The notes under the pieces: model-generated
The model's input: the letters and a program-made list of their open reading frames with translations, nothing else
What the model was told of the DNA's origin: nothing
Databases searched by the model: none
NCBI GenBank assembly: GCA_036172245.1
Contig: JAYWIR010000124.1
Coordinates: 1 to 64,000, forward strand
DNA: 64,000 bases
Direction: 5' to 3'
Source of the DNA: Raillietiella orientalis
Taxonomy: Eukaryota
Made by a program: the position numbers and the translations under genes
Part shown: piece after piece, positions 1-35,940 of the stretch
Position numbering within the stretch: the first letter of the stretch is position 1
Layout of the letters: each line of letters begins with the position of its first letter

Positions 1-108
1 CTTTCGATTTTCACCCGGATTTAGCCGGGCGTTTATTGTGAAATAAACTTTTACAAAGACGTGTGGTGGCTGGACCATTGCTCCAGCCACGCACGAAGAA
101 ACACAGAG

Positions 109-153
109 TCTGCCGGGTCAACGGTTCGCAGACCGGTACGGTCCACCACGGCA
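109..153 (-). promoter_or_regulatory. Conserved 3'UTR stem-loop (representative copy)
   Basis: CTGCCG...CGGT-CTGCGA-ACCG...CGGCAG, with equivalent hairpins in about ten other 3'UTRs. Confidence 0.6.
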
Positions 154-224
154 GCAGGGGGAAGGGGGAAAAACAAAAAACAAAACAAAAAAGAAAAGAA
201 AAGTTGGGAGGGTAAGGGAAGGGA

Positions 225-3200
225 TCACAGTTGCTGGTGGTGCCGTTGCATCCTTTGCAGGAAGCCGGCAAGCACCTTTTGTATTCCTGGATCCAGGTGA
301 GGCCATCGCGACGCTCTCCTCAGGAACTGGGAGGCTGGCTGGATGGCACCCTCGTCGCGTTGTCCTCCCGTAGCCTTGCTCCAAGCGGTGACAATCCCGC
401 GTAGGCAGCACAAAGCTGCTAACGAGGCCGCTGGCCGAAGGGCGTCGGCAACGAAGAGGGCTTTCAGTGGGTCCCTGGGGTTGCCGCTGGGGATTCCGAT
501 GGCCGCGGCAAAGCAAAACCAAAGGGGCCGAAGGGCAACACAATCCACTAGCAGGTGGGGTAGGGACTCCCGTTCCCCACACCTGACGCAATAGGGGTCC
601 ACCGCTCCCCAGGTCCAGTGGTGTTGGCGAACGTTGCATGGGAGTCCCCAGTGCTGCCACAAGAATGCCACTCCTGCCATTTTAAGGGGAGGGAGGAAGT
701 GTTCATGTGCACCGGGGGCCACTTCAGATGTTCAATGAAAATTTTGAGCAGCGCGCCCCAGCGCAGAAGTCCAATGGGAGGCGTACTCGGGGACGCAGCG
801 TCTGTTAACTGGCCCGTCTTCCACTCTCCTATCTTCTTCTCCTTTCCGGAGATTTTTACTGAAACCTTCCACTTCGCCGTAACATCGCTGTCCAGATCTT
901 CCATCAGGGAAAGCAGCGCAGCAACAAGATGGGTTCTTTCTGCCCACGCTCTCTTCCTTGGATCCTCCAGGATCTCGCGGAGCGTGCAACTGCTGTAACT
1001 CCCAAACAGAAACCTTCATTTCTGTTGGGAGCATTGCATGCCGAACTGTCCCCACGTTCGAACAGTTTCCTGCAACCAGGCACTACCGTTCAACGGGCGA
1101 CAGGTGAGCAATCCTGGGTTTTTTTGATACCGCGCAGCCACCCTCCGTAGCTGGAGTCCGCATCGGTTGACGCGGCGACGGAGTACAAGAAACGACGTCA
1201 GTCCCACCTTGCCGGTGGCTTGCTGGAGAAGGAGACGTGCAGGGACGCACCAACAGGTGCACCACAACTCTGGAACGAGTGCCGACAAGCGGAACCTGAG
1301 GTGAAGCTCCAGCCGCTCCAGCATCAAGAGGCCCAGACCACCATCCCGACGAGGAGCGCACAAGTCCTTTAAGCGGACTCGGGCCCACCCGTTGCCCCAA
1401 AGGGCGATACGGAGGTGGTCCTTTTTCAGCTTTTGAATTCTCTCTTTGGGGGAGCAAACAAAAAGCAGGGGGCGGAGGAGAGGAGCCGCGAACGTGTCCC
1501 AAACCGCGGCCCGTTCAGGCAGGAAAAACCTGCCACCACGGAACGGGCCGATCGCCGTCTCTACTTTTTGGAGGCAGCCGGACCAGGCTTCCGCAGGGTA
1601 GTAGTCCCCCAACGGCACACCAAGGTACTTGAAGTACCTCACCGTGGGGATCCCCAAACGGACCCAGTCCTGCTGCCCTGCCCACGCCGCACCAACTGGC
1701 ATCACGGACGACTTCGCCCTGTTCAACGTATGTCCGGTTCCCCGATGCAGCAGGTGGAAAAACTCCTCGACCGCCGAAGCCGGGGTGGACATAGGGAGCA
1801 GCAGCAGAAGGTCGTCCGCGTATGCTAAAACGGCGGCGTACCGGCGCAGTCGTGCGGCAGGTGCGCCAGTGTTCCCCTGTACGCTCTCAGTACCAACTCA
1901 AAGTAGGTACTGAAGAGCAAGGGGCTCAGGCTGTCTCCCTGCCGGATCCCACGACGCACCGGCACGCCGTGCACGGTCTGCCCGCTGAAAGTAACATTGA
2001 TGAGCGCGTCGCGCCAGCAGGAGCGCAGATAGGCCACTAATAAGGCCGGGAAGCCCAAGCGTTCTAGAAGCTACAGAAGGAGATTCTGGTCGACGCAATC
2101 GAATGCTTTCCGCAAGTCGATTGCGACCGCAAGGGCTCCCTCCCCCACCCGACCATTTAACCCCTTGCCGGCGCACGCACCGGAATTCCGGCTGCGCACC
2201 AAGCTCCTTTCATGTTAGAGCTCTAGCCAGGTGGAAGCGTGGAACAGTTTCGCCTCCATGCTTCGCCCGGGAACAGCATATGTCTGTTCCGGACTGACGA
2301 AGATGTTGGCAACCCGTCGAAGACGCTCTGCCCAAACCTTTGCTAGCAACTTGGCGTCCGTATTCACTATTGTGATGGGACGCCGGTTGTTCATGCTCCT
2401 CAGACCTCCTCCCTTAGGGAGGAGCCGCACCTTTGCCGAACGAAACGAGGCGGAAACGTCGTATGTTTCGCGTATCAGGAAGGTGAGTTGATGTAATAGG
2501 GGGTTTAGCTCAGCCGCGAAAGTTTGATAAAACTCCGCGGGCAGGCCGTCCTCCCCTGGAGCCTTTCGCCTCTTGAGCTTTCCGATGGCCGAGAGGATCT
2601 CGTCCATCGTGAAAGGCTCGTCGAGGGTCTTTCTCTGCTCCTCCCCGATCGCTGGAGCGCCTTTCGGAAGCAGGAGTCGTGAGACGTTCCCCTCGGGAGG
2701 TGCCCTGGCATACAGGGAGGAGTAGTAACTCCGCAGCTGGCCGCGGATTTAAGCAGGTGGCGAGTGCTCCTGGCCCTGATCGTCCAGTAAGCTGGCCGAT
2801 CCGGACTGCCAGGCTTGCCTCTCGGCTCCCGCTTTGTATTTTGCCAGCCTGCGGATGTCGGGGGTCCTGGCGTAACCACGGGCCTGCAGCTAGGCCCGTT
2901 CGTCACGGACCCCAGTCCCAAAACCCGTAGGTAGGCGGTGCAGAGGGAACTGGTCGCAGAACTCCTGGACCGACCGCTTGAAGCGGTCCCAATCCTGGAG
3001 TGTCCGCAGCCTGAAGCTCCGTATGAACGTGCGGAGATGTTCCGCCGCGTCCGGGAGCTTCAGCCAGTCCCCTGGGAGACGCCATGCTGACGAGGAGGGG
3101 CCCCTGTCGCAAGGATGGATCTCGAGGACTAGCGGGCGATGGTCGGATAGCTCGCACGGTAACTTGCCGCGCCTGCCCACGCGAGGGCACAGGTGCTCGT

Positions 3201-5310: not shown

Positions 5311-6540
5311 TGTCCTCGATCCTCGTGGCCTACCAGCGCAGCCTCTGCAACTGTGGCCCCGATTTGCGCCAGATGGTCGCCCTGATGAGGGAGAATACCT
5401 GGATCTCCTGCATCCCCGCGAACTGCACTGCCTGGCTTCAGGAGTCAGCTTCCGCGTAGGCTAAGACCAACGGCACGAGCGAGGCGGAATACAACTGCCT
5501 ACGACGAGGACCGTAGGCTCGACAGCCGCTGCAGGTTATTATCAACACGCCCCGGAAGTTTCTGGGGGCTTCTTTCAGCCCCCTTCCCCCTGTTCTGTCC
5601 TCCCTTGAAAACACTAGGAGCAGCAACGAGCTGGCATCGTGGGAAGTGTCCTGCCTCATCCGAGGCAGGAAAAAACCTTCAAAGGCGTGAACGACTCGGG
5701 AGCTCACGGACGCTTGCACCCCGAGCGTCCCGCCTCACGGACTTGCGCGCTGAGGAGAGCTGCTCGCAATACCTTTGGACGAGGTGAAGTGGCCCCCAGC
5801 GTGTTGGGATTGCGGCACACTTCCGTTGAAGTGGCAGGAGACGGCGTTGCTATTTCTGCACTGGGGACTGTTAAGCAGAGCACGCCTGTCTCACTGGACA
5901 CTGGGAAATGTGGATGCCTGCTGTGTCGAGTGCGGAGAAAGAGAAACCTTCCCGCATCTCACCCTCGAGTGTGTCGCCCTGGATGGACTCTGGAGTCGAA
6001 TCGCCCCAATCCTCTATCTTCCAGTAGGCGACTCTAAGGAAATTTACCGTCGCCTCTTTCTGCGTGACGGCCTGTGCCCCGCTGCGTCTCTAGCAGTCCT
6101 CTGCTGCGTGCGCGGCATTGTGCAAAGGTGGCACGCCAGAAGAAGAGGCCCAAGATGCAGGGACGCCATCCACTGGACGACGATCTCTTTAGAGACGGCG
6201 ACAAGGTGGCGTCTACCTTTCACAATAAAAACTGAACTTGACTGCATCCTCAACAGGATGCGGAGGACCGACCCAGGCGCCCAGTGATTCCTTCCCTGCC
6301 CCGTCTCTCCCCACACAACTGTTTTCCTCCTCGTTATCTCTCTTTTTGTTTATTTTTGTTCTAGTTTTCCTTCCCCATGCGCCTCGGGAATGGACCTAAC
6401 CGGTCTACGCACCGGCAACAAACACGTCAACCAAGGTGGAAAAACCAAGTGTTTCCCACAATTAACTTTTGAAAGACGTTATTATCTAATTTTTGTAAAA
6501 AATTAGAATAATAAATGCCCCGGCATATCCGGGTGGCAAA
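5311..6540 (+). mobile_element. 5'-truncated LINE fragment: ORF2 C-terminus plus 3'UTR
   Basis: ORF 5775-6287 (KWQE..LHWGL..CVECGERETFPHLTLEC). Homologous to 18850-20090. Ends AATAAAT...CCGGGTGGCAAA. Confidence 0.88.
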
Positions 6541-9500
6541 CTTCGGCTGCAGCCGAGCATTCCTGGCCAGCGTCATCGAACAGACAAGCCGCTCCAAACT
6601 GCCAAACCTGGCGCTCGGCCCTGGCCTTATACTTCGCCAGACGCTGGACGTCCGGGCATCGTGAAAAGGTAGGTGCCTGCAGATAGGATCTGCTGTTGGC
6701 GACACCCTCCCCGAAGCCGCGGGGAAGCAGGTGCAAGGGGAACCGGCAGCAGAACTCGTGGACTGATCTTTTCAGGTCGTCTCAGTCCTCGAGTTCATAG
6801 ATGGCGAAGCCCCGGAGGTGTTGGTGGAGATGCTCCGCCGCCTCCGAATTGCTAAGCCAGTCAGCCGGCAACCTCCAGACATTCATCGGAGGCTCTGTGC
6901 AAGGCTAGAGGAGCTCGAACTCTAGTCTAGGATGATCCGAAATCGCGGACAGCAGGCGCCCTCCGTGAGAGCAGGTGTTCTTCGAGGATCGCATGGTACG
7001 GCGACCTCTCTATCCCGGGCTCACCAGCAAGCAAGTTTTGCACGTGCACGGACGTGCATACCTCGCTCACCAGTTGCTTCTCCCTCAAGCGGCATCTCTC
7101 CTCTGTTAGCAGGTGGACGTTGAAGTCTCCTGCAAGGAGGTGCGCCACGTTAGCGCCGGAGTCAGAGAGCCAGCGGCTGCGCAGGCCTCCCAGGAATGCA
7201 AGTCGCACGGCGTAATGCCAGCCTCAGCTCGGCGCGTAGATGTTCGTAACGACCAGGTCGATCGACTCGGACCACTTGAAAACAAGTTGGCCCACACGAC
7301 CTTCCTCGTCGAAACAAACGTTCCGCACCGCCTCCGCCACCCTGCCTCGGACGAGGAACGCCACTCTGCACGTGTGCGCGGAGCCTTGCCGCCAGTGTAG
7401 CGTCCCGCCCGCGCGCTCTTTTAGATCCGATGCCTGCCGTACGGTGATGCTATGTATCTCCTGCAGCAGCACCAGATCGAACGCGCACAGAGCGTTGGCT
7501 ACCGTCCGCCTTTTGTCAGCATCACGTAGCCCGTTGACATTCCAACAGGCCACGCTGACGGGACGAGCGGACGCGAGTTTAAGCATCACTGCTGCGGACA
7601 CGACGGCGTGATCCTCGCGCCGTCCGGCGTGAAGTGAGCTGGTAGGAGAGCGGATTGGGAAGCGGAATCGCTCCCGTTCGCCGCCACATCGCGCCCAGCT
7701 GAGTCCTAAGAGCTGAGGATCATCGCCTCGGTCTCCGTGCAGGAGCCGGAACCGCCTCCGGCAACAGGATCGTGCTTTCGCACTTTAGCCCGTCGCGCTA
7801 CAGGCTTACCCCGGGATGCGCGCTCCATTTGTTTGCACTCGGACTCCACCTCGGAGTCCGAGTGCCTGGCGCGAGACTGGCGTTTTGCCAGTCTCTTTTT
7901 GTTTCGGCAGGTGGAGGCTTGCCCTGCCCGCGCGGGGGTCGTCCCAGTCGCCAACGCAGCTTCCCGAACTTTGGCTTCCGCAGCCGCCCTCTCGCGCGAA
8001 GCGACGGAGACAGAGCACGCAGCCGTAGTGCGTACCTGCGTACGCACCTTCTTCGGCGTGCTTCTCTTTTGCCTCCCACCTACCTTAAGGAAGGGGAATA
8101 TTGAAGAATCAACCTTCTTCTTCCCCTTTGTGGGCGTCCTGGAGACTCGAGTCCAGCCCGCGTCGGGGACGCCCTCCTGGGAGGCCGACGCCTCCCTCAA
8201 TTGTTTGGCCGGAGATGCCGGCTCACGTTTCGCGCTCGCGGCGGGAGACGGCTCCGTCCCCGTTACGCACTGCACCTGCTACTTAGCCGATGCGGGCGAA
8301 GCGGCGGTCATTGCCGTCGTCTTGCGAGGCGCTATTGCAGCCTTCGCTGCTCGTGCCTTCGGCGTGGAAGACGTGATCTCCACCGCCGTAGGAGGAGACT
8401 GCCGTTCAGAGGCAGCTCCGAGGGTACCCGCGCACGGTTTCCCGTGTGCTCCGCTGGACGCGCAAGCGGACGCGGACGGTTCAGCAGCCTTGATTGAGTG
8501 CGTGCCCGCACTCTTTGGCTGCTTCGAAGGTGGCGATTCGCCCCCAGGGCGACGTGGCATCTTTCCCGTCTGCGCGGTTGTCTGGGATGGTGGCTCTCCT
8601 GAAGAAACCGCGCCCTTTTTCGCGGGACCTCCACTCAAAGATGCCCCGCCCTTCGCGCCCGATTTCTCCCGTGGCACAACGGGGGAACTTTTCGGCGCGG
8701 ACGGGGTCGATTGTTGGCGGCTTTTTGCCTGCTCCTTACTCTTCAGCTCGGCGCACTCTTTGATGGAGTGGCCGAGCTGTTTACAATAGCGGCAGTTGCG
8801 TGAAGGGCACGTCCACGGACGGTGGCCCTCGGCACCGCGAATGCTGCAAGCCTGTTGCTGACCCGCAAATTTTAGGTGGACGATCGCATCGCCCACCTGC
8901 AAGTGCGGAGGCATTTGCCTCCTATCCGTCATGGTGACACGCACCATGGCAAGTCCGCTGTGGAGAGATGCAATCCTTTTGATCGGATTTTCTGCTCTCC
9001 ATGACGCGTGCACCGTGCCGAATGCACTCAGTGCAGCGACGAGCACGCGATCGGGCGTGTCCACCTGGACAGCGGATAATCGGACCACGAACGACTGCTC
9101 CATGGCCGACGGGACGACCTCCTTCCCGCGGATATTTAGCAAGGTGCGGAGAAGGCGCTGGACTAGGGATGCCTCATTGCAGTGCACCTCCCAGTGTCCG
9201 AGCGCTTTAACCGGCATGACGGCCAGGAGGTCGTCCTGTCGGACCCCAACGCGCAAAAGCTCGTCCCACGAATTTTCTCCGACCCCGTCGGAGATAGAAG
9301 CACTCACCGGATAGCAGAGCGCAGGCTTGTAGCCATGGGCTGCATATGCCTGCTGCTCTGCTTCGTCGGGCGTTGCTCCGTTGGCAGCCGTCGCCTTGAC
9401 GACGGCGGCGAAGCTTCTCGCCGGTGGCGAGACACAAGAATCAGAGGCGGACCGGACATCTGGAGTAGGGTCTCCACTGCCATTAGCAGCCTCCACATCC

Positions 9501-9607: not shown

Positions 9608-11067
9608 AGTGCACCGTTGTCGTCGAGCGGATTCCCGCCATCGACGAATGCGGCGCTTAAGAACTCGCTGCTGCCCCTGCTCAACCCTTTGTTGACCAAG
9701 TCAACAAGGAGGGGAGCGAGGCGGCGGCGTCTGTCATCAAGCGCACGCTCGATGACGTCGCCATCGAGCGCGCCGCAGAGGAACTGGCTGCCTCGTTGCA
9801 GCCTGCCGCCCCCAAGGCTGGCAAGAAGGCCGTCAGGCGTCCGGCTTCCCCTCAGCAGTCGGCCACATCCGACCCCGAGGTGAAGGCCGGAAACACAGCA
9901 TTCATCTCCTTGGCACCCCGCAAAAAGGAAGGACGAAACTCCACAATGCCCTGAAAGATCGTCTCCCCCGACGAAGGGGAAGAGGGTAAGATGGGTGCGA
10001 TGAGCGTGGGAAACTCCCGGGACCCGTCGACCGAGAGAATCCTACGCTTCGGCACGGAGGAGATGGAAGGGGTGGAGGCCGAACAGGTGCCTTTGTTGCC
10101 TAAAGAGGCCTCCGTCATCATGGACATCCCGAACACCTGCCCCGCGGCAGGTGGTGCAGCGCCACCTTCCCAGCAATAAAGCCGAGAATCGCCTCCCGTC
10201 GGCGTCTGCTGATCGCCTGCTGGAACGTCAACGGGCTAAGCAACGACGGCAAGAGGCGTGACGTGGCCGCCACCCTGCCATCCTTTGACCTGGTGCTGCT
10301 GCAGGAGATCCACGTGATCTCCGCAGATCAAGCCCGGGAGATCGAACGGATCTCGGGTGGTGGGCTGCTGTAGCGCTGCGCTACCGCGAAATCTAGCGGT
10401 GTCGCCTTCCTGCTCCGACCAGCCATCGAGGCCGCAATAAAGGAAGTACGGTTTGATGACGCCGGCCGCTACGGTCAGCTGACTCTTAGCTGGTCCGACT
10501 CAATCGACGTGGTCGTCACCAACCTGTACGCTCCTAGCGGTAAGGACGCGTTGAGGGCGAGGGCAAGAAGAGAATTCTACCTTGCCCTCGGACGCGATTG
10601 GCTGATCGAAGCAAGTGTTCGCAAAGCGCACCTGATCGCAGGTGACTTCAACCTGTGCCTGCTTTCAGGTGCGCCGGATACACTGAACGACCGCGTCAAC
10701 GAGTTGTGCGCGCAAATGCACACGTGCAACTTGCTGGCCGGAGATACGGACATGGAACGGAGCATCGATCAAGTGTACCTTGACCAGCACCTATGCTCTC
10801 GCGTGGGCAGGCGTGGCAAGTTACCGTGCGAGCTATCGCACCATGGCCGAATCATGTTCGAAGTGCATCCGCGCGACAAGGACCCCCCCTCGTCAGCGTG
10901 GCGTCTGCCAAAGGACTGGCTGAAGTTCTCGGACGCGGCGGAACATCTCCGCGCGTTCATACGGAACTTCGGGATGCGGACGCTTCAGGACTGGGGCCGC
11001 TTCAAGCGGTCGGTCCAGGAGTTCTGCGAGCGGTTCCCTTTGGATCGCCTACCTGCGGGATTTGGGG
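9608..11067 (+). mobile_element. Internal LINE fragment: A-type ORF1 C-terminus plus APE domain
   Basis: Homologous to 3800-4390. ORF from 10509 has NLYAP, GDFN, SIDQ and WRLP. Broken at ...LPAGFG. Confidence 0.88.
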
Positions 11068-11280
11068 TTGTCACCCGAGTACGCCCGCAACGTTTATTGA
11101 AAAAACTCTACATAAACGTGGTACGAGGCTCCACTAACGGCCACACAACACCGGACCTGCCGGGACGCTGGGACGCAGCCCGGCGTGACACTCCTCGGCA
11201 GTGGAGGGGGATAGGGATCAAAACAAAAAGAAAAATAAAGATAAGGAAAACAAAAAAGAGTTTGGAGGGAGGGGAAGGGA

Positions 11281-14200: not shown

Positions 14201-14674
14201 GACGGAGATTGAAGTCTCCAGCTATCAGGTGTGCCTTCCGCACATTCGTGTCGGCCAGCCAATCGCGCTTCAGGGTTTCCAGCAGCCTGGTACGGTCGCT
14301 GTATCCTACTTTTCCTCTCGGGGCGTACACGTTCGTGACGATCAATTCGATCGAGTCGGACCAGCTGAGAATCAGCTGACCGACCCGACCGTCGTCATCG
14401 AAGCGTACGCCCTTCACGGCAGCGTCGATGGCCGGCTTCAGGAAAAACGCGTCCCCACAGGTGTTGCGGGCGCCGCATCGCCAATACAACCGAACCCCGC
14501 GATCGTCTCGATCTCCTGGGCGTCTGCCGCGGTGATCACGTGGATCTCCTGCAGCAGGGCCAGATCGAAATCACGCAGGGTGTCGGCCGTATCTCGTCTG
14601 TTGCCGTCGTCACGCAGCCCGTTGACGTTCCAACTGGCCACGCGGATTCGACGGCGACAGGCGAGCCCAGGTGT
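11281..14674 (-). pseudogene. ORF2 APE-RT-Zn finger with two frameshifts, one stop and an in-frame C-terminal deletion
   Basis: ORFs 14438-14641, 13899-14489, 12880-14154 (KAPGEDG, DLHKAFD) and 11281-12840 (QGDSLSP, YADD, KYLG, CARC). Confidence 0.92.
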
Positions 14675-17958: not shown

Positions 17959-20090
17959 AGCTTTCGACTGCGTCGACCAGGAGCTCCTTCTGAAGCTCCT
18001 GGAACGCTTGGGATTTCCGACCGTCTTCCTGGCCTACCTGCGCTCCTGCTGGCGCTTCACGTTCATCAATATTAATTTCAGCAGCCGGCACGTGTTCGGC
18101 GTGCCGGTTCGTCGTGGCATCCGGCAGGGTGACAGCCTCAGCCCCCTGCTCTTCAGCATCTACTTTGAGTTGGTGCTGAGAGCATACAGGGAGACTTTGG
18201 CAACCTTGCCGAGCTCGTGTCCCGGCACGCCTTCCGTGTCGGCCTATGCCGACGATCTTTTGCACCTGCTTCCCGGGTCCACCCCGGCATTGGCGCTCGA
18301 ACATTTCTTCGAGTTGCTATACCGTGGGACAGGCCTCCAGGTGAATAGGACGAAGTCGTCGTTGCTTTTCACCGACTCGACGAGGGCCGGACGGTCGGAC
18401 TGGATCCGCTTGGGGATCCCCACGGGCAGGTACATCAAGTACCTTGGCGTTCCTTTGGGGAACTTCTGCTCTGCAGAAGCCTGGTCCGACCGTCTACAAA
18501 AGCTGGAGCTGGCGATCGGCCCGTTCCGGGACTGCATGTTCCACTTGCAGGAACGGGCCACGGTATGGAACGCTTTCGCTTCCTACTTTTTGTGTGCCTT
18601 ACCCCGTACCAAATCAGGACACGGACTAGGGGCCTTATACGGAAAGCCCTCTGGGGCAACCGGAGGCCTCGCTTCCGGCTCAAAGACTAGTGCGCTCCAC
18701 GCAGGGACGGTGGACTTGATCTTCTGACGTTGGAGCGCATGGAGCGACAGCTCCAATTCAGAAAACTTGCCCTTGTGGCAAAGTTTTGGACAGCACCCTG
18801 GTGTGCACCGGCAAGACTCCTTGCTCACAGGGCAACCGGCTGCTTCGGATTGACTTCAATCCTGGTAGGCAACGAACGCAGCCTGAACCATTGTGGTTAT
18901 CAGCTGCGGGATTTGGTTGCTCTGATGAGAGACATCATTTGGATCTCCTGCATCCCAGCGGACTGGACTACCTGGCTTCAGGAGTCCGTATCCGCATGGG
19001 CGAAGATCAATGGCACCAGCGATGAGGACTTATCCTGCCTCCGCAGAGGGAGGCACGCTGGTCAGCCACTCCAGGAGATCGTTTCCAACCCACGGAAACT
19101 TCTGTGGGCTTCCTTCACCCCCCTTGCCCCAGTGCTGCCCTCCCTCAGGGAAGTTCGGGACAGCCACCAACAGGCATCGTGGGAAGTGTCCTGCCTCATC
19201 GGAGGCAGGAAAAAATCACTGAAGGCGTGGACGCCGAGGGAACTAGCGGACGCTAGTACCCCGAGTGTCCCGCCGAACTGACTTTTACGCTGGGGCGAGC
19301 TGCTCGATATACCTCCGGAGGAGGTGAAGTGGCCCCCAGCGTCATGGGACAACGGCACCCTTCTTCTGCAGTGGCAGGAGACGGCGTTGCTTCTGCTCCA
19401 CTGGGGACTTTTAAGCAGAGCACGCCTGTCTCGCTGCACAACGGCCAATGTGGATGCTACTTGTGCAGAGTGCGGGGAAAGGGAGACTTTTCCCCACTTG
19501 ATTCTGGAGTGTGTTGCCCTCCGCGAAATGTGGGACAGACTCTCGTCGATCCTCAACATTCCGGGGGGTAACCCGAAAAATTTATTCAGACGCCTCCTGA
19601 CGCAAGACGGCTTGCCAGTCAACGGGAGCGTAGCAGTGCTCTGCTGCATACGCGGTATCCTGGAGAAGTGGACCGCGTCTAGGAGAGGAAGGACCAGCCG
19701 GAATGCCATCCACTGGGCAGCGATCTCCTTGGAGAAAGCGTGCCGTTGGCGCCGACTTCAAACACATTTGCCGGCACTTGTTCGCATCCGAAACCGGATG
19801 CAAAGGCCTGCTCACGGCGCACCGTGATCCCCTCCCTTCCTCCCCCTCCCCAAAAAACACTGCCCTCCAGACGTTTTTCTTTTTTGTTTTTGTTTTCTTT
19901 CATTTTTCCCGTCCCGGCGCCAGTGAAGGACCTTATCGGCCTCCGGGTCGGTAAGGACAAGTGCTACTGAACTTCTGCACTGAACTTCTGACGTCGTAAA
20001 GAGAAAAATTTTAACAACATAGACTTGATTACAAAATTTTGTAATGTAAAAATTTCAGTAATAAAAGCCCAGGCTTACCCGGGTGAAAAA
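17959..20090 (+). mobile_element. LINE 3' part from the RT AFD motif to the 3' end
   Basis: ORFs 18008-18727 (QGD, YADD, KYLG), 18730-19281 and 19324-19827. Ends AATAAAA...CCCGGGTGAAAAA. Confidence 0.9.
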
Positions 20091-24437: not shown

Positions 24438-27365
24438 GGGTTTGGGGAAGGAACTCGCAACCTAAATGAGTATTTATACGCCCGTCTTTATGCAAGGACC
24501 CTCAACGTCCGTCGCCTGGCCGAGTATCGAGCTGGGACTGAGCAGCAAGCTTGGCAGTCCGGGCCGCTTACCCTGCTGGACGACCAGGACCGTGAACACT
24601 CGGCCCCGTCAGCAAATCGACATATGCTGAGAAAATTTTATTCCTCACTGTACGCCAGGGAGCCTCCTGAGAGGGACGTATCGCGACTGTTGCTCCCGGA
24701 GGGATCCCCGGCCTTAGGGGAGGAAGAGATGAAAAGCCTCGACGAACCTTTTACAACCGGTGAAATCCTAACCGCGATTAAAGGGCTCAAGAGGCGGAAG
24801 GCCCCAGGGGAGGGAGGCCTGCCCGCGGAGTTTTTTTAAAGCTTCGCGGCAGAGTTGACTCCTTTGGTGCACAGATTGATACAGCTGATCCGGGAAGAAG
24901 GCGATGTTCCTGCCTCGTTCCGGTCAGCTAGGATGAGGCTTCTCCCTAAAGGAGGAGACCTCCGTATTCTAACCAACTGGCGTCCGATCACAGTTGTGAA
25001 CACGGACGTCAAGTTGGTCGCGAAACTGTAAGCTGCGCGGCTCGGACAGGTAGTTGAATCCGTAATTAGCCCGGAGCAGACTTACGCTGTTCCCGGGCGA
25101 AGTATAAAAGCTAACCTGTTCTTCGCCAGCAGATGGTTCCATGTACAAGACGAAATGAAAGAACGCAAGGGATCTCTCGAAAACCCCTATTTAAGGGTGA
25201 CCGCTGGTCAGAATGGAGACAGCCGGAAGGGCAAGGGTGCTCTAGCGATCGCAGTTGACCTTCATAAATCGTTCGACTGCGTGGACGAGAAGCTCCTCCT
25301 AGAGCTTCTGCATCGAATGGGCTTTTCTCCTACTTTAACGGCGCACCTGCGCTCTTGCTGGCGCGCCGCGATAACAAACCTCTGTTTCAGAGGACAGAAC
25401 GTGTACGGCGTGCCGGTGCGCTGCGGGATTCGGCAGGGCAAAAGCCTCACTCCCCTGCTCTTTAGCACTCACTTCGTATTGGTGCTGAGAGCACGCAGGA
25501 TTACTTTGGCTGCCTTGCCAGCCTCAAGTTCCGGCACGCCTGCCGTGTCCGCAAATGCCGACGATCTAGGGCTCCTGCTTTCATTGTCCTCCTCGGCAAC
25601 GACAGTCGAACATTTCTTCGACCTGCTAAGCCGTGGGACAGGGCTACGGGTCAACAGGGCAAAATCGTTGATAATGGCAGTTGGAGCAACGTGGGTAGGA
25701 CCGTTTAACTGGATCCGCCTGGGGATCCCGACGGGCACACATCTGCAGGACCCTGGCGTTCCGCTAGGGGACTTCTGCCCGTCAGAAACATGGTCAGGTC
25801 GTCTTCAGCAAGTGGACTTGGCGATCCGCCCGTTCCTGTAGGGGCAGTTCCACTTGCCGGAACGGGCCGCAGTATGGAGCGATTTTGCGGCCCCCATCCT
25901 TCGCCCAATACTTTTCGTTTGCCCCGTCCCCATGAATATGAAAAAAAGGACAAAGGACCTCCTGCGACCTTTGGGGCAAGGGGAGTCCCCTAGACCCTTT
26001 GATGGACTTGTGCGCTCCGCGTCGTGATGGTGGTCTTGGTATCCTGACGCTGGAGCGCATGAAAATTTGCTGCGATGGCGAATGTTCGCCATCGCAGCAA
26101 AGTTGTGGAGCACCCCGTGGTGTGTTCCTGCCCGCTTCCTTGCCAGATGTGCATCCGGAACGGGAGAACTCGCATCTCTTCTTTTATGTCGTGGAAGGAA
26201 GACAAGAAGATGCGGCCTTCTCCACAGACGTGCAACCCCTCTGGCGAGGGAGAATGCGTGGATGATATGCAGCCCCGTCAACTCCAGCTTATGGCTCCAG
26301 AAACAGTTAACACGCGGACGATAGTGAATCAGAAGTGCCACGAGAGGTGGAATAGCCTACGGCGAAGCAAATACTCCCGCTGCACTTTACGCGAGATCCT
26401 GGAGTGTCCAGCCAGAAGAACGTGGGCAGACACGACCTGCCTGGCTACGGTGCTGCCCTTCCTACGTAGGGCCCTTGTCAGCAGCCGGACGCCGAGGTGG
26501 CAAGTCTCTTACCTTATGAAAGGCAGCGAACAATTATTGAGCGGTTGGACAATGGTTCATCTGGCGGACACCACAACCCTGAGCGTCCTTCCCAAAGGAC
26601 TTCAAGGAAGGGGCGAGCTGCTCGGCATCACGACTAATGACCTGAAGTGGCCCCCAGCGATAACAGGAACAAGCATCCTTTCCCTGAAACGGCAGGAGTC
26701 GGCGCTGATGCTGTTGCACTGATGACTCCCAACCAATGCCCGCCGTCACCATTGGACTGGGGAAACTGTGAAACCAAACTGAGCCCGGTGTGGGCAACGT
26801 AAAATCCTCAGGCACCTTTTAGTTGTCTCTGCTGCTCTCTGGCCTCTGTGGGAACGTTTCGGTTCCTGCTTAGGGATCCTGGAAGGTGGCCTTCCCAGAG
26901 ACGTTTCTCGGCTCCTCTTTGTGCGGTACGCCCTGCAGCCAGCCGCTGTAATAGCAGCTCTCTTCTGCGTTCGCGGTATTGTGGCAGCTTGGAGTGGATC
27001 CAAAGAAGCAGAGGATGTCAGCAAAAAAAATGCCATGGAGTTTGCAGCTCGCTTTCTGCGAACAGCAACCCGATGGCCTTTACTGGGAAATCAGTACAAG
27101 GACCTCGTCGGCATCCTGGAAAGGATGGAAGCTCCGCGAAACGGGCAGTGATTTCATCCCGGCCCTCCAATTGACCAGTGTTTTCACTGTTTGTTTTCCT
27201 TTTATTTTTGTTTTTCATTTTTTCAACCTATCCGTTGCCGTGAAGTGTCAAGTTGGTCTAAGCACCGACTACCCGACATCACCAGAGAACTACTGGCCGC
27301 AGCAAGGCCTTGTACTACAAAGACTGTTAGTATTTTAATAAACGCCCTGGCATTCTGGGTGAAAA
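24438..27365 (+). mobile_element. LINE 3' two-thirds (linker, RT, Zn finger, 3'UTR), heavily degenerate, D-like C-terminus
   Basis: ORFs 24624-24839 (KAPGEGG), 25155-25841 (DLHKSFD, NADD) and 26921-27151. Ends AATAAACG...CTGGGTGAAAA. Confidence 0.9.
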
Positions 27366-30300
27366 CGGCGAGAGAAGGAAGCAACATACTGAAGAGCACT
27401 TCAACGAGGCACACGAATCCACGAAGAATCACGTGACTTTTTCGTTGAGCGCATTGCGTACAATTGGAAACATCCAATGGGCGTTCCATTGGGAAGCACA
27501 TCGAACATAAGATAGACGAGAACATTCGGCGAATGACGACGGAATTACCAAACAAGAACGAACAAAAATAACCCAAAAGATCACAATTTAAAGGGAAACA
27601 ACAGAGGCAAGCAATGTGACATAGGATGCAGGAATAGCTGCAAAGGGAAGACAAAATCACTATTTTGCAAGTATGCAGACTCGGAACCCGTACGCAAGTG
27701 CGTTCGATGGATGGACCCATGCCAAGCGCGCACGTGACTTTCGGAAGGTCGCAGCTCCCGTTCAGCGGATCCGCGAGTATGAATTCAAATTTATTCAAGT
27801 CATCCCCAGAAGCCATCAGTGACCGGCAAGAATGGCTTCCGTAAAAGCGCACATGGTCAGAAAAAGGACAATGAGAACCAACGCAGTTTCCGCAACGGGT
27901 AAGTGAAGATGTCTGAACATTGGACAAGTCGTAACAGCAGCACACACTCAGTGTGAAGTTCCAGACTCGCAAAGAAGCAATCACTTCTTTAGAGAGTACC
28001 ACGGAGCCCAAGTCTATCGACAACCTCGGTACAAATTGGAAAAATTCAGTTCTGCGACGCGATGAACGCAAGTTTATACGAAGTTTCGTTTCGACGGTAG
28101 CATCCACGGTGAAGGAACACGCGCGACCCAAGAAGAACCAGACCACATACTTCCGCAGTTGCTATAGGGACGGACTGAGATCAAAAGAAGCGTCCCGTAA
28201 CTCTCAGTGGCGCAATGAAGTCGACTGCGGACGCCGGATAAAAGAAGTTGCACGCAAGAAGAGGAAAAGCGGTCCGACCAGAGATGCAATAGCTCTTTCT
28301 ACTAATGCTGCTTACGATGGTTAACAAGATGCGCCACAGCATGCTGCTGCCTTCCATAACTTCGCACAGGACGAGTGGTTTCTTGAGCGCTGCATTCAGC
28401 AGAGGCGCGGATTTTCTGCAGCATTTATACCGAATTACGCACATTTCCAACCAATACCAGCCATGGTCAACACTTGGAACGACAGGAGTCAAATGTGTCG
28501 AAGACACATGGTTCTGGATTGCCTCGCATCGTGGTATCGGTGATGCAATCCTAAAGGATTGCCAGCTGCAGGAACCTTAGCTGCAAATCAGACGAGCGAA
28601 GTCTCCACGAAACTGCGCTACAAACATGCGTTTACGATTATCGGCAAAACGCCGTGAGAAGACACAGATCACTGCAGCCTCCCGATCCGCCCGGCAAAAC
28701 GGCAAAGAAACTTATGCAGCCAAGGGAGATTTTTTTCAAAATATGCTGTTTCCACAGTAGCTACTAACAAGAAATACCTACAAATCAAGTGATGCAAAAC
28801 GAATAATCTGCGTATAGTAGGAAAAAGGACCTCGCAGCTTGATATCGAACACTACATGTCCACAGGAACAAAGGAAGTTGAAAGGCCACAAAAAGCAATG
28901 CGAGGTCGCGGGCGTTTTTTTGCTCCTTAAGGCTGCGTTGATCCAATGTTGCTCGACAGCTGAGAGGTGCACGAGTGAGGCATTCCTCGAACAGATACAT
29001 ACTATCAGACTGTCGCAACGCTTCCAAAACGAACGTCCCAAACGAGTCCAGTTCGCTATTCGGAATACCTCCTCCAGCTAGATTTAAGTTATAGGTTCAA
29101 AATTCATACCATTAATTATAAAACGCCTGCATCTCTGCTGCAGCGTCTGTTATCCAACACAGGTATGCGGAATTTCTCCAAGTAGGAAGCCTCGTAGAGA
29201 GTGGGGAGAGTTCGAAACTTGGCAGGAAGGCCGTCAACTTCCAAGCAGGTTTTGCGAGAATTACTTGATTACGCTTCTTGTGCTGCGATCGCCGTTCAAA
29301 TGCATGTAAGCCGAAAAGCAGGTTCCACCATCGCACGAAGTCTTCCATGAAGTCAGTGACATGAGAGATTTAACCGCAAGCACGAGGTGCATCGCCTGAC
29401 AGTTGTGAAAGAGGATACGCCAAGCTTCCTTCATGTATCAGTTCTCAGTACATTTGCTGTCAACTGCACTCCCCATTCCGATGTGTTTTTTCAAAGAGGG
29501 CATCATACCGTTGGCAAGGTAGCAGAAGATCTCATACAAACTGCCAATTCTAGCTTAAAAGCGAATGACACTACCGGATGCTCCCTTGGAGATTCTCCGA
29601 AAGAGCTCTGCATGCTTCGTCAAGGGATCACAGCACATTCTCTTTTAAAGAAACAAATCGGAACTGGAGAAAAACGAAGAAACGTGCATTTGTAAAGAAA
29701 ATGTGATCGAGATCAAAACAAATTGGAGAGATTTGGCAGATAAAAACGATAGAATTAATTGCGTCGTTCGAGAACGCACAACAGAGAGGAAAAAGTTCCC
29801 GAACACGGCAATGATGGCGAACCCCGGCAGCTGGAAGGGCATTTCTTATGTTCTAACTCGACAGTGCGAGATGCTGATTCCCCATTTACTCAGCTGAGAA
29901 CGGCAGCAAAGAGCTCAAAATCGCATTTTTGTCCAGCTGATTGGATTGGTGTGCTACCTGCTCTTAAGGATCGACTCCTAGTTTTTCTACAGCTTGACTC
30001 ATCTTGGAGGACCACTGTCACTGGCACATGGCAAAGATGCCTCCAAAGAACAATTGGAGATCTCGGAAGGCTAGAAATTCTCATAAGCGAGTAGTGCTGC
30101 ATAGAGTCAGCACACATGGAGTACGCATTTTTCGTGCTTCTAACCGAAAGAAATCAAGGTTTCGAATCCTCGTCTCGGGACATTGGAATGAGCATCCTCA
30201 GGCAAAACACGATGCAGCGTCATCACCTGTTTCGGAAGTTAGCCCAAGCTGCGAAGTTTCCGATCACCTATACTTTCCGGCCCAGCACGATGGGCTGGAG

Positions 30301-32362
30301 TTTCTCCCCAATCTACTGCGACCCAAAAATGCCCCGACTTGCACATGAGCACCGACAGATGGTTTCCGCGGTGGTGATCGGAACTTAAAGAAAAAAAAAG
30401 TGCTCCGAATACATTCTCATTCTCAGCTCATGCTCATTCCTTGTTCCAGGAAGCATCGAGGAAACAAAGAAGACGTCATTGCCTGGAATAAATTTAACTG
30501 CTTTCGCGCAAACGATTGTGAGTAACAGCGTAGACAAAAACTTGACGACAATTGGAGGCAGATCTGCTGCAGTATCTATAGGCGCACAAATCTGTTGGTT
30601 GATTGCTACCAGTGTCAGCTGTCTGACGCTTGGAGTGCCAACGCTGTGCCTGGAGAAGGTATTTGGAAGACCGATTTAAATTGAAAACTCGTTGGCTGCA
30701 GTGGAAATTCACGCGCATAGTTTGGATAACCTCGGCTGCTTCCTGTTAAGCGGCACGACTCGGCCCCGTGATCCCGCATTGGAATATGCCATGCAACACA
30801 CGTTTCCATCAGTGCTGCAGAAAGACCAGGATTCCAGATCGAGCCGAAGTGGATGAAGGGCTGCTGCTGTGGACGTTATGAGAGTTTCGCTGTGCCATAA
30901 ATTTTTTTGGCTTCGCCGACTTTTCTGCAATCGCAGAGTGTGTTGTCTGCGGGAAGAGTGCGCGGTGCACATAGTGCTGTGAGAGAGCCACGATCGTTAG
31001 CCGCTTCGCGACTCCGCCTTCTCACTTGCATGAGCGCGGCGCCTTAGCGGACACCTAGGAAGCCGTTACCTCTTTTTTCCGTGTTTTTGGCTTGAAAATA
31101 TCCCAAACGTGAGCACACCGAACCATAGACCGTACGCCTGGCCCGACGCATTAGTCTTGCTTCTCGAATGAGCAGAGCACAAACTCGAAATCGGAGGGTA
31201 CGCCGTAGACTGTTTTGGGAGCATCGGTATGAACAAAGGAGTTCAGAATGCTGTTAGTTTTGAATTCGCAGATTCTTCCTGTGAATTTCTTATGGTTGAG
31301 TTACTGCGTGAAAACTTGAAGACGTGTTCTTCAATTCTTAATGAGAACGTGCTTAAAACACATCAGAAAAAACGCTATTTCTTCAGTTTCATAGGCAGGC
31401 TCTATAGAAAGAGAGAATCTCGCTTGAGAGCTCATCTACCAACCCGCTGATGAGGAGTTTGTGAAAAATGCTCGTTTAAAGGAGATGGATAAGTGTATGG
31501 TAGGTAACGCTTTCAAGTCAGTATTTTTTGTTCGAATGAAAGTTCGGAGGAGTTGACTAGTAAAGCCTAGTTAGGTGCTCAAGAAATTATACTGATCCAA
31601 TACGGATCAAAAACTACTGAATTACATTTGCGGAAACATATGTTTCGTAAAACATATAAACAGATATGTTTTAAATTTTTTTAGATGACACCTGCGCCTT
31701 ACGTAATTCCAGAGAGAGAATTCTTCAGGGAGTTCATGATTGATTTCATGCAGAGAACCACTTGCTCTTTTTAATATCAGGTGAGTAACAAAAGGAATTC
31801 ATTTATATCGATTTCAGCGTGAGACTCCTGATGCAAAGGAAGCACGTTAACACAACAGCCAGAGATACAAATCATATTCAAATACGTTAACGAAGATCAT
31901 CCAAGCAAAAAAATTCCTGTTCATTGCAACGAGCTGCTACTCCTAATGATGACCGTGAGCGCAAAGAAGCGCGAAAGCATCCAATAGCAATGATGTTCAT
32001 TGCCCTTATATACCTTGTGCCTATCTCTTTTGAAAACTCACAAGACTTGCAGGCATTACACGTGACTGGATTGTAATTAGGGCAAGCAAAAATAGCATCC
32101 ATGCTGCTACATTGGAAGAAAAAAAGTTCCCCGTTGGATCAGGAAGAAGAAGGCATTTCCTTTTGCGGAGGAAAGGGCAGCAAAGCATGAACGCCCACAC
32201 GATTTGAACACTTCCACGGCAGAACTGAGGATGAAATGGAAAGCAGCGCAGAAATTACAGAGACCCCTCCCAAACGTTAAAGGAAGGCGACGGATTCTTC
32301 ACACCCACACTGCCCCATCTTTGGCGCCTCTAGGCGCCGCCACCGAGTCTAGTCTTCCTGGG
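27366..32362. repeat. Unidentified ~5 kb low-copy unit, copy 1 (left arm of the inverted repeat plus spacer)
   Basis: Its reverse complement matches 32400-35810 and 46324-51410. No recognisable protein over most of its length. Confidence 0.9.
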
Positions 32363-32399: not shown

Positions 32400-35300
32400 C
32401 ATGCAAGTGAAAAGGCGGAGTCGCGAAGCGGCTGACGATCGTGGCTCTCTCACAGCAGTTGTGCAGCGCGCACTCTTCCCGCAGACAACACACTCTGCGA
32501 GGTTTCATGTTAAATCGGTCGTGCAAATATCTTCTCCAGGCACAGCGTTGGCATTCCAAGCGTCAGACAGCTGACACTGGTAGCAATCAACCAACAGATT
32601 TGTGCGCCTATAGATACTGCAGCAGATCTGCCTCCAATTGTCGTCAAGTTTTTGTCTACGCTGTTACTCACAATCGTTTGCGCGAAAGCAGTTAAATTTA
32701 TTCCAGGCAATGACGTCTTCTTTGTTTCCTCGATGCTTCCTGGAACAAGGAATGAGCATGAGCTGAGAATGAGAATGTATACGGAGCACTTTTTTTTTCT
32801 TTAAGTTCCGATCACCACCGCGGAAACCGTCTGTCGGTGCTCATGTGCAAGTCGGGGCATTTTTGGGTCGCAGTAGATTAGGAGAAACTCCAGCCCATCC
32901 GTGCTGGGTCCAGAGTATAGGTGATCGGAAACTTCGCAGCTTGGGCTAACTTCCGAAACAGGTGATGACGCTGCATAGTGTTTTGCCTGAGGATGCTCAT
33001 TCCAGCACCCTGCAATGCGGATTCGAAACCTAGATTCCTTTCGTTTACAAGCACGAGAAATGCGTACTTCATATGTACTGACTCTTTGCCGCACTATTCG
33101 CTTGTAGGAATTTCAAGCCTTCTGAGATCGCCAGCTGTCGTTTGGAGGCATCTTTGTTATGTTCCAGATACAGTGATCCTCGAAGAGGAGTTGGGCTCTA
33201 AAGAAACTAGGGAACGATGCTGAGGAAAAGTTAGCACACGGATCCAATCAGCTGGACAAAAATTCGATTTTGAGCTCTTTGCTTCCGTGCGGGGTTCAGT
33301 GAATGCAGAATCAGCATGTCGCACCGTCCAGTTAGGACATAGGAAATGCCCTCTTAGCTGCCAGGGATCGCCATCATTGCCGTGCTCGGGAACTTTTTCC
33401 TCTCTGTTGTGCGTTCTCGAACGACGCACTTAATTCTATCGTTTTTATCTGCCAAATCTCTCCTATTTGTTTTGATCTCGATCACATTCTCTTTACAGAT
33501 GCATTTTTCTTCGTTTTTCTCCAGTTCCGATTTGTTCTTTTAAAAGCGAATGTGCTGTGATCGCGGGACGCAGCACGTGGTGTGCTTTCGGAGAATCTCC
33601 AAGGGAGCATCCGGTAGTGTCATTCGCTTTTAAGCTAGAATTGGCAGTTTGTATGAGATCTTCTGCTACCTCTTTGAAAAAACACATCGGAATGGGGAGT
33701 GCAGTTGACAGCAAATGTACTGAGAACTGATACATGAAAAAAGCTTGGCGTATCCTCTTTCACAACTGTCAGGCGATGCAACTCGTGCTTGCGGTTAAAT
33801 CTCTCATGTCACTGACTTCATGGAAGACTTCGTCACATTCAGTGAACCCTTCACTTTTCAGCTTGTGCATTTGAACGGCGATCGCAGCACAAGAAGCGTA
33901 ATCAAGTAATTCTCGCAAAACCTGCTTGGAAGTTGACGGCCTTCCTGTAAGTTTCGAACTCTCCCACTCTCTACAAGGCTTCCCTACTTGCTGGAGAAAT
34001 TCCGCATACCTGTGTTGGATAACAGACGCTGCAGCAGAGATGCAGGCGTTTTATAATTAATGGTATAGATTTTGCGTTCTCGCAACAAATCTGGCTGGAG
34101 GAGGGAATTCAGAATGGGGAACAGCACTCGATTGCGACTTACGTGTTGGGAGCGTAGCGACAGTGTTCTTGTATGTCTTCGTTCAAGGAAAGCATCACTC
34201 GTGCAGCACTCTGCTGACGAGTAGCATAAGAGAAACGTAGCCTAGAGGAGCATAAAACCTGCTGCGATTTCCCATTGCTTTTTCTGGGCCTTTCAGTTCT
34301 CCTTGTTCCTGTGGACATGTAGTTTTCGATATCAAGCTGCGAGGTCCTTTTTTCTACGATACGGAGTTTGTTCGCTTAGCATCACTTGATTATCAGGTAT
34401 TTCTTCCAAGTAGCTACTGTTAAAACAGCAGATCTTGGAAGAATTCTCCGCTGGCCTTGTTAGTTTCTTTGCCGTTTTGCCGCGCGGATCGGGTGTCTGC
34501 AGTGATCCTTTCCTACACACGATGTTTTTCTGATAATCGTAAAGGCATCTTTGTAGCGTTGATACGTGGCGTCTTCGCTCGTCTGATTTGCAGCTAAGGT
34601 TCCTGCAGCTGTGAATCCTTTGGTGTTGCATCACAGATACTGCAATGAGGGGCTTTCCAGAAGTATGAGCTTTCGAAACACTTGACTAATGTCGTTCCAA
34701 GTGTTGACCATGGCTGGTATTGGTTGGCAATGTGCGTAATTCGGTATAAACGCTGGAGAGGTTACGCGCCTTTCTTGAATGCAGCGCTCAAGAAACCACT
34801 TGTCCTGTGCAAAGTTCTGGAAGGCGGCAGCATGCTGTGGCGCATCTTGTTCACCATCGTAAGCAGGATTATTAGAGAGAGCCATTGTATATTTGGTCGG
34901 ACCGCGTTTCCTCCTCTTGCGTGAGGCTTCTTGTATCCGGCGTCACGCAGTCGACTTTCATTGCGCCACTGAGAGTTACGGGACGCTTCTTTTGATCTCA
35001 GTCCGTCCCTATAGCAACTGCGGAAGTATGTGGTCTGGTTCTTCTTGGGTCGCGCGTGTTCCTTCACCGTGGATGCTACCGTCGAAACGAAACTTCGTAT
35101 AAACTTGCGTTCATCGCGTCGCAGAACTGAATTTTTCCAATTTGTACCGAGGTTGTCGATAGACTTGGGCTCCGTGGTACTCTCTAAAGAAGTGATTGCT
35201 TCTTTGCGAGTCTGGAACTTCACACTGAGTGTGTGCTGCTGTTACGACTTGTCCAATGTTCAGACATCTTCACTTACCCGTTGCGGAAACTGCGTTGGTT

Positions 35301-35940
35301 CTCATTGTCCTTTTTCTGACCATGTGCGCTTTTACGGAAGCCATTCTTGCCGGTCACTGATGGCTTCTGGGGATGACTTGAATAAATTTGAATTCATACT
35401 CGCGGATCCGCTGAACGGGAGCTGCGACCTTCCGAAAGTCACGTGCGCGCTTGGCATGGGTCCATCCATCGAACGCACTTGCGTACGGGTTCCGAGTCTG
35501 CATACTTGCAAAATAGTGATTTTGTCTTCCCTTTGCAGCTATTCCTGCATCCTATGTCACATTGCTTGCCTCTGTTGTTTCCCTTTAAATTGTGATCTTT
35601 TGGGTTATTTTTGTTCGTTCTTGTTTGGTAATTCCGTCGTCATTCGCCGAATGTTCTCGTCTATCTTATGTTCGATGTGCTTCCCAATGGAACGCCCATT
35701 GGATGTTTCCAATTGTACGCAATGCGCTCAACGAAAAAGTCACGTGATTCTTCGTGGATTCGTGTGCCTCGTTGAAGTGCTCTTCAGTATGTTGCGTCCT
35801 TTTCTCGCCGTGATATCAAGTGTTGCATTGCTCGAGAATGCCCTTGATTCACGTTGCGCAAGCTGCTTGCTCGTGTCTGCGCAAACTGCTTTTCGTTTTT
35901 ATTTTCGTATGTTTCACTGAGAGCTTGTTTTTTGTAGGTT
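32400..35940. repeat. Same unit, copy 2, inverted relative to copy 1, with a ~250 bp deletion at 32500
   Basis: ORF translations 35030-35920(+) and 27223-28146(-) are identical up to ...VEVLFSML. Junction ...CACTCTGCGA|GGTTTCATG skips 47830-48075 of copy 3. Confidence 0.9.

Follow-up and report, generated by a model that had tools for sequence, protein, structure and literature searches.

A conserved internal stem-loop in the 3'UTRs of diverged L1-like retrotransposons from Raillietiella orientalis: a candidate handle for template recognition

The stretch of DNA analysed here (positions 1 to 64,000, forward strand, of contig JAYWIR010000124.1 in the Raillietiella orientalis assembly GCA_036172245.1; hereafter, the 64-kb window) is N-free and carries decayed copies of an apparently L1-like family of long interspersed elements (LINEs), the 3' untranslated regions (3'UTRs) of which share a small hairpin that we term SL1. 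Each of the window's 11 3'UTR copies has it, in the sense orientation of open reading frame 2 (ORF2) and behind an ORF2 C-terminus or the remnant of one. Its position, strand, conservation and compensatory change are established below. We put at roughly 0.5 the probability that SL1 is a selected RNA stem-loop, which would act as a cis handle for recognition of the template by the element's own protein. Most L1-type elements are thought to choose their template by its poly(A) tail, and structured 3' signals in L1 relatives are, in the literature excerpts drawn on here, ascribed to few lineages, namely, one from monocots and one from a green alga. The present family adds a case, in that it keeps an internal hairpin together with a tail-less, hairpin-capped end across lineages at ~30-55% protein identity.

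SL1 is shared by eleven 3'UTR copies

An earlier reading of the DNA (the original prediction) had listed ten hairpin strings, each with a position and a strand, and had proposed that they belong to the sense-strand 3'UTRs of LINE copies from diverged subfamilies. All ten strings are where it placed them and on the sense strand that it named (the minus strand for the one at 109-153), and the wider proposal was borne out by the placement of the 11 copies behind ORF2 sequence: by tblastn, the ORF2 C-termini of the hairpin-bearing copies are 31-56% identical at the protein level to the reference copy. An nhmmer profile derived from nine of the sites recovered ten 3'UTR copies (E values 8e-55 to 3e-24), plus a weak match at 45137-45154; nine of the ten originally listed sites fall within 3'UTR copies at E <= 5.6e-36, and the eleventh copy, at 39451-39680 (-), is new (E 2.9e-24), with its SL1 at 39550-39565.

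In copy c2, SL1 occupies 122-135 (-), where CGGT (135-132) and ACCG (125-122) flank the loop CTGCGA (131-126); it is enclosed by an outer stem spanning 110-154 (-), in which CTGCCG (154-149) pairs with CGGCAG (115-110), and this outer stem is part of the minimum free energy (MFE) structure of c2. On the plus strand, SL1 reads CCGGT/CTACGC/ACCGG in c6268 (6400-6415), AGTTGGT/CTAAGC/ACCGACT in c27128 (27251-27270) and CCGGC/CTGCCT/GCTGG in c42116 (42228-42243), whereas in c19808 (19931-19956) a 10-bp stem carries the loop CTCCGG, which may close further to a tetraloop. On the minus strand, it reads ACGCCGGG/CTGCGT/CCCAGCGT in c11056 (11165-11186; one C.A mismatch), TCGGT/CTGCCC/ACCAA in c38749 (38861-38876; one C.A mismatch), CCTGGC/CTGCGT/GCTAGG in c45020, the most diverged copy (45137-45154), TTCGGT/CTGTGC/ACCGAA in c53750 (53859-53876) and TCGGT/GTGCGC/ACCGG in c56966 (57087-57102); that of the new copy, c39451, is decayed (CCGGT/CTGCAA/ACTTG, with the loop at 39555-39560).

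Across the copies, the second loop position is U (T in the DNA) in 11 of 11 and the first is C in 10 of 11, and both G's in the 5' strand of the stem are the same throughout. The switching of the closing pair, to which the original prediction had drawn attention, is real: it is U-A in seven copies, C-G in three (c19808, c42116 and c45020) and G-C in one (c11056). The outer CTGCCG/CGGCAG stem, predicted for several copies, pairs in 6-8 of the 10 copies aligned with MAFFT, depending on the pair; in c53750 and c27128, the enclosing helix adopts another register, GTGGAG...TGTC with GACA...CTCCAC. The start of the loop lies 96-120 nt past the ORF2 stop (96 nt in c2, in which the TGA is at 225-227 (-), within GTGATCCC), the exception being c45020 at 205 nt; AATAAA follows 79-119 nt downstream of the loop, and the element ends ~110-150 nt from it.

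The SL1 of c45020 was missed both by MAFFT and by an 81-column covariance model, which found just its 10 training copies, the next match having an E value of 0.27. We regard the hairpin at 45137-45154 as homologous by position: it is preceded by an ORF2 C-terminus (tblastn match at 45363-45779 (-), 31% identity; stop at 45351-45353), its loop begins 79 nt before AATCAA, a spacing also seen in three other copies (to AATAAA in two and AATGAA in one, with 80 nt in two more), and a hairpin-only covariance model that was built without c45020 recovers it as the second-ranking non-training match in the whole window (15.0 bits, E 0.47). The best non-training match of that model, at 18234-18257 (+) (16.6 bits, E 0.21), lies within reverse transcriptase (RT) coding sequence and is taken for a chance match.

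The stem varies by compensatory change

The principal test of covariation took the 11 copies in a loop-anchored alignment without gaps, with an 8-bp helix (88 cells) and 500 shuffles. In this alignment, 79.5% of the cells pair, compared with 68.7 +/- 3.2% in the shuffles, none of which reaches the observed value; when the 3' partner is slid by 1-3 columns, a control that keeps the relatedness of the copies, pairing drops to 26-43%. The compensatory changes that had been claimed are clearly seen: there are changes on both sides in six of the eight pairs, the cells with both-side changes number 17 (8.2 +/- 2.4 in the shuffles), and the covariation score is 0.552 (0.314 +/- 0.049), the latter two values being reached by 0 of 500 shuffles. 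A 10-copy MAFFT alignment without c45020, which is independent of the loop anchoring, gives 90% pairing for the inner helix, with double changes in three of six pairs, and 74% for the outer helix, with double changes in one of six. RNAalifold returned the inner helix from an 83-column alignment, and from a 206-column alignment of the downstream UTR it returned just two helices, of which SL1 is one and the other is a 4-bp helix directly after AATAAA. The sense strand pairs in 70 of the 88 cells and the antisense strand in 62; for the six inner pairs, the corresponding values are 60 and 54 of 66. This difference lends a modest lean towards an element that would operate at the level of RNA.

The compensatory changes were also placed on a maximum-likelihood tree of the flanks, from which the 18-nt hairpin core had been excluded. 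Here, c6268 (U-A) and c19808 (C-G) are sisters, with support of 92/95; c11056 (G-C) falls within a clade (84/94) whose four other members are all U-A; and c42116 and c45020, both C-G, form separate long branches. By this placement, the closing pair underwent a double change no fewer than three separate times. In addition, the sisters c53750 and c27128 differ by U-A to G-C at the base of the stem. The mean pairwise nucleotide identity is 61% for the 18-nt hairpin core, 45% and 37% for the 18 nt on its 5' and 3' sides, respectively, 56% for the last 390 coding nt and 62% for the 30 nt from AATAAA onward. Read from these comparisons between copies, the data show SL1 to have been under selection while the lineages were active.

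The mismatches and wobbles in the stems of c38749 (C.A, 38872-38876), c11056 (C.A, 11165-11172) and c27128 (U.G, 27251-27257) fall where other copies have CpG. These changes, from CCGG to CCAG or TTGG, resemble the decay of CpG in inserted copies; the genome would then be a methylated one. A candidate alternative helix, between the CCGG of the inner 5' half and the CCGG of the outer 3' strand, was rejected, as 327 of 500 shuffles reach its level of pairing and it is, therefore, no better than shuffled sequence.

Proposed role of SL1 and alternative explanations

SL1, as we picture it, would comprise a core stem of 5-6 bp, a 6-nt loop with CU as its first two letters and, in most cases, a further helix around them. 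Within the sense RNA, the stem would present the loop for binding by an element-encoded protein, most likely ORF2p, and this binding would select the element's own RNA as template; target-primed reverse transcription would then start at a defined, tail-less 3' end, which is the mode described as 'stringent'. The precise ends of the copies, with at most seven terminal A's, count in favour of this reading because stringent LINEs show such ends. We infer that, inside the cell, the RNA would take this shape, that a protein would bind it, which protein this would be, and that the binding would be needed for retrotransposition.

Several observations weigh against such a role. As a bare motif, SL1 is not above chance: a search of both strands for a stem of at least 4 bp with a CT[GA]CGN loop found six instances, compared with 4.9 +/- 2.4 in 30 dinucleotide shuffles; for the looser CTNNNN loop, there were 207 as against 179 +/- 11. 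The non-random part is the shared position together with the covariation, and the latter has its own weaknesses: the count of six double-changed pairs out of eight is matched by 73 of the 500 shuffles, the shuffle control ignores relatedness, and the 11-copy alignment carries a selection bias because c45020 was placed by its forming a hairpin. The evidence base as a whole is 11 related, dead copies from one 64-kb window. Thermodynamic evidence is likewise weak. In single-sequence folds of 63-85 nt from the 11 copies, the MFE structure holds the exact hexaloop hairpin in two (c53750 and c27128) and an altered hairpin in two more (a 3-bp version in c39451 and a tetraloop-closed version in c19808), and it prefers other pairings in the remaining seven, c2 included. 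The z-scores relative to shuffled sequence are -1.69, -0.69, +0.08, -0.37, -0.95, -2.90, -0.40, -1.63, -0.02, -1.65 and +0.85, of which one, that of c53750 (z = -2.9), is below -2. Finally, SL1 does not occupy the terminal tail beside the point at which reverse transcription starts, where a different conserved module is found; given that SL1 is internal, the RT may instead use the terminal hairpin as its handle.

This last point leads to a rival that we consider possible, if on the doubtful side, in which labour is divided within the 3'UTR: the terminal module of AATAAA, hairpin and GGGTGAAAA would be the RT handle, and SL1 would have another RNA job, such as binding of ORF1p for packaging, or stability, export or translation through a host factor. 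Besides the 79-119 nt that separate SL1 from AATAAA, the near-equal conservation of the last 30 nt and of the SL1 core (62% and 61%) fits this division, as do the small helix that RNAalifold places right after AATAAA and the zinc knuckle of ORF1 (Pfam zf-CCHC, E 2.4e-4, above the Pfam cut-off). Internal 3'UTR stem-loops are, however, reportedly necessary for retrotransposition of silkworm SART1. The best-studied stringent LINEs, as far as the cited text describes them, have their recognized stem-loop within the 3' tail itself (PMC4176376), which again favours a terminal handle; still, sequence by itself does not separate this division of labour from recognition of SL1 by ORF2p. A more sceptical explanation, which we think unlikely, gives SL1 no function at all: the 3'UTR would simply be inherited, GC-rich and palindrome-prone, with its CCGG motifs, and the covariation would stem from the small number of sequences, their relatedness and the choice of alignment. 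The frequency of such hairpins in shuffled sequence, the unremarkable folds and z-scores of most copies, the sample of 11 and the 73 shuffles that match the double-change count are all as it would have them. It fits poorly with the loss of pairing on sliding the register, in which relatedness is kept, with the three or more separate occasions on which both sides of the closing pair changed in a hairpin-free tree, with a core that is more conserved than its flanks although the adjoining protein C-terminus is down to 31-56% identity, and with the recovery of the left-out c45020 at the expected spacing.

The stem is also an inverted repeat in the DNA, and the antisense strand retains pairing in 62 of the 88 cells, as would be expected if SL1 were a palindromic protein site, a structure in an antisense transcript or a landing site for other LINEs. 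We regard this as very improbable: owing to G.U pairs, the sense strand folds better than the antisense strand, SL1 is uninterrupted by insertions in all 11 copies, and the variation of the stem sequence with pairing kept makes a poor fit to a sequence-specific DNA site. Slimmer still is the case for an element in 3'-end processing or a self-cleaving RNA, roles that the original prediction had also entertained and for which the analysis gave no support. The location in the 3'UTR upstream of a conserved AATAAA is compatible with them; however, the canonical signal suffices to explain an end ~20 nt past it, and no Rfam family, ribozymes included, matches any of the 3'UTRs at the gathering score or at E <= 1. 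Across the window, there were 0 matches at the gathering score, and E <= 1 gave one unrelated microRNA model (E 0.4), at 14347-14392. A distance of 79-119 nt from AATAAA is, moreover, beyond the usual range of upstream processing elements. Three resemblances, namely, the CAGUGN hexaloop of the iron-responsive element, the CNGG loop recognized by Smaug and the histone stem-loop, were set aside, as the loop letters do not fit and there is no Rfam match. Judged by its sequence, SL1 belongs to no RNA family described so far.

Relation to known 3' structures of LINEs

It is plausible that SL1 resembles the 3' stem-loops of known stringent LINEs in its presumed working, save for its internal location. 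In the L2 clade, the ORF2 proteins of zebrafish ZfL2-1 and ZfL2-2 are described as binding the 3' stem-loop of their own element, with general recognition of the stem and specific recognition of the loop (PMC4176376). These elements and eel UnaL2 (PMC3747384), as described in the cited passages, share with the present family a stem-loop in the 3' region of the LINE, precise ends and the lack of a long poly(A). Apart from the difference in clade, their stem-loops are in the terminal tail and are followed by short repeats, whereas SL1 is upstream of AATAAA and a terminal hairpin; and, whereas binding and function are reported as experimentally tested for the L2-clade stem-loops, SL1 is described here from sequence.

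Another parallel is with one monocot L1 lineage, for which the cited accounts describe a conserved hairpin at the 3' end with compensatory changes (PMC3472496, PMC3747384). As in these monocot 1a elements (LINE1-1_ZM with ZmSINE2/3; Ohshima 2012/2013), we see an L1-clade-like LINE, a conserved 3' hairpin, a compensatory stem and a few fixed loop letters; in those accounts, the monocot hairpin is read as stringent recognition in an otherwise 'relaxed' clade (PMC3472496, PMC3747384). The details differ: the monocot loop is given as UCU with a 3' flank of CGAG (PMC3747384), as opposed to the CUGCGN loop of SL1 and a 3' flank that is not conserved (37% mean identity). Moreover, as far as those texts describe it, the monocot hairpin lies in 3'-end sequence that is shared with short interspersed elements (SINEs), whereas SL1 is internal, the window has no partner SINE and the host organism is different.

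A further likeness is to SART1, a target-specific APE-type LINE of the R1 clade, of which the cited text states that the 3'UTR, beyond its end, is essential; SART1 ends in poly(A) repeats (PMC3747384), in contrast to the seven or fewer A's of the copies here. For human L1 and Alu, a conserved 3'UTR stem-loop has been proposed (PMC5135761), the likeness to which is by description only; mammalian L1 is stated to depend on poly(A) (PMC3472496). Literature searches confined to open-access texts turned up no such hairpin for Tx1/L1-type elements other than in the works cited here.

We advance, tentatively and as a somewhat improbable proposal, a two-part 3'UTR code, in which an internal stem-loop with a CU loop start, common to long-diverged, co-resident L1/Tx1-like lineages, would be combined with a second, separate hairpin that terminates the element, which has no tail. 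If true, this would extend stringent, possibly bipartite recognition in the L1 clade to a setting outside the green plants, it would support the suggestion, as worded in the part of Ohshima's account used here (PMC3472496), that stringent recognition is ancestral to L1, and it would have sister lineages in one genome sharing, or competing for, one RNA-binding partner. With its outer stem, SL1 measures ~45 nt and is, thus, a compact RNA suited to binding studies.

The remainder of the 3'UTR and the element end

From 5' to 3', the 3'UTR comprises the stop, a C-rich block, a T-rich tract, a second C-rich block, the enclosing helix, SL1, a second hairpin (SL2, in ~6-7 copies), AATAAA, a GC-rich hairpin region and GGGTGAAAA(C). 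The pyrimidine-rich first part, made up of the two C-rich blocks and the T-rich tract, covers 155-224 (-) in c2. The first C-rich block, which begins right after the stop (GTGATCCC...; 205-224 (-) in c2), is kept in the other copies; it contains 3-4 runs of C3, which appear as G runs on the antisense (cDNA) strand.

SL2 was recognized by eye in ~6-7 of the 11 copies as a second hairpin 30-45 nt downstream of SL1, with a 7-nt loop that starts GCA or GUA. In c2, it lies at 66-90 (-), where GTGGCTGGA and TCCAGCCAC form 9 bp around the loop GCAATGG, and it is included in the MFE structure; it is also seen at ~42290-42315 (+) in c42116, at 27295-27309 (+) in c27128 and in the same relative place in c53750, c38749 and c11056. 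Its stems vary strongly from copy to copy (9 bp for c2, 7 bp for c42116 and 3-4 bp elsewhere), it is absent or unrecognizable in c6268, c19808 and c45020, and it was not called by RNAalifold.

The terminal module of c2 spans 8-37 (-) and consists of AATAAA (37-32), the GC-rich hairpin region and then GGGTGAAAA, at which the element ends with no poly(A) tail. The pattern AATAAA(Y)G...GGGTGAAAA(C) recurs at 6510-6541 (+), 11067-11098 (-), 27337-27366 (+), 38760-38791 (-), 42334-42365 (+) and 56977-57008 (-), among others, and all 11 copies end in GGGTGAAAA(C) or variants of it. A search for this tail pattern found seven distinct sites (0.08 expected), each in an SL1-bearing copy; since all seven distinct matches fall in known LINE copies, there is no orphan tail, or partner SINE sharing the signal, in the window.

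In 5 of the 11 copies, the SL1 loop starts with four bases (CUGC, or CUGU for c53750) that complement the 4-mer located at +18 on the 3' strand of the outer stem (GCAG, or ACAG for c53750), as illustrated by 128-131 and 110-113 (-) in c2, and by 53867-53870 and 53849-53852 (-) in c53750. The loop thus repeats the 5' strand of the outer stem, and an alternative fold could be possible in those five copies. A loop pseudoknot with this 4-mer was rejected as a general feature, the other six copies having no complementarity there, and, by eye, the loop did not pair consistently with the CGCC that follows AATAAA.

The host element and the window

A map drawn from stop-to-stop open reading frames and tblastn shows the window to be a nest of decayed non-LTR (long terminal repeat) retrotransposon copies on both strands; the GC content is 52-63% across most of it, with two stretches that are richer in AT. 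Each LINE copy has a reverse transcriptase and an endonuclease of the APE type, in addition to an ORF1 that bears a CCHC knuckle. Pfam detected no RRM-like part in ORF1; in ORF2, it identified the reverse transcriptase as RVT_1 (E 1.8e-11 to 1.6e-7), and the APE piece matches exonuclease III (E 6e-8) and the L1 endonuclease (E 2.6e-5). We class the family as an L1-like, APE-type LINE, a clade placement that is drawn from solved structures only, because, among these, human L1 ORF2p is the nearest match to the N-terminal RT piece (E 7.8e-24), with R2 far off (E 1.9e-3); for the C-terminal RT piece, R2 (2.2e-6) is slightly ahead of L1 ORF2p (2.6e-4). The comparison set, the PDB, holds no RT from the CR1, Jockey, RTE or I clades.

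Public protein collections yielded two matches to the C-terminal piece of ORF2, at 65% (JGI) and 31% identity. A first metagenome scan for relatives found none; a second gave seven loci with 22-61% identity over short segments, which were not used, and the ESM Atlas returned generic eukaryotic RVT_1 clusters only. ARAGORN found no tRNA-like gene in the window. Contigs from one DNA sequencing run (share 0.08), placed at 80% likeness, gave 373 pieces, of which 280 are <90% alike; among the differences listed, none is inside any SL1, and these contigs have no bearing on expression or ends.

Other repeats in the window

The AT-rich parts contain a repeat of ~4 kb in inverted copies, with 90% and 83% identity, at 27365-30691, 32498-35811, 47443-51401 and 46364-47351; it starts exactly at the end of the LINE copy c27128. 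The repeat carries a Cys-rich open reading frame of 301-312 amino acids, at 27223-28161 (-) and 35015-35920 (+), the two translations of which agree over most of their extent; the copy that was scanned had no Pfam match. Lastly, the 3' ends of c11056 and c56966 (11056-11066 and 56955-56966, respectively) abut, in antisense orientation, the ORF2 linker (~residues 99-131 of the N-terminal RT piece) of plus-strand LINE copies.

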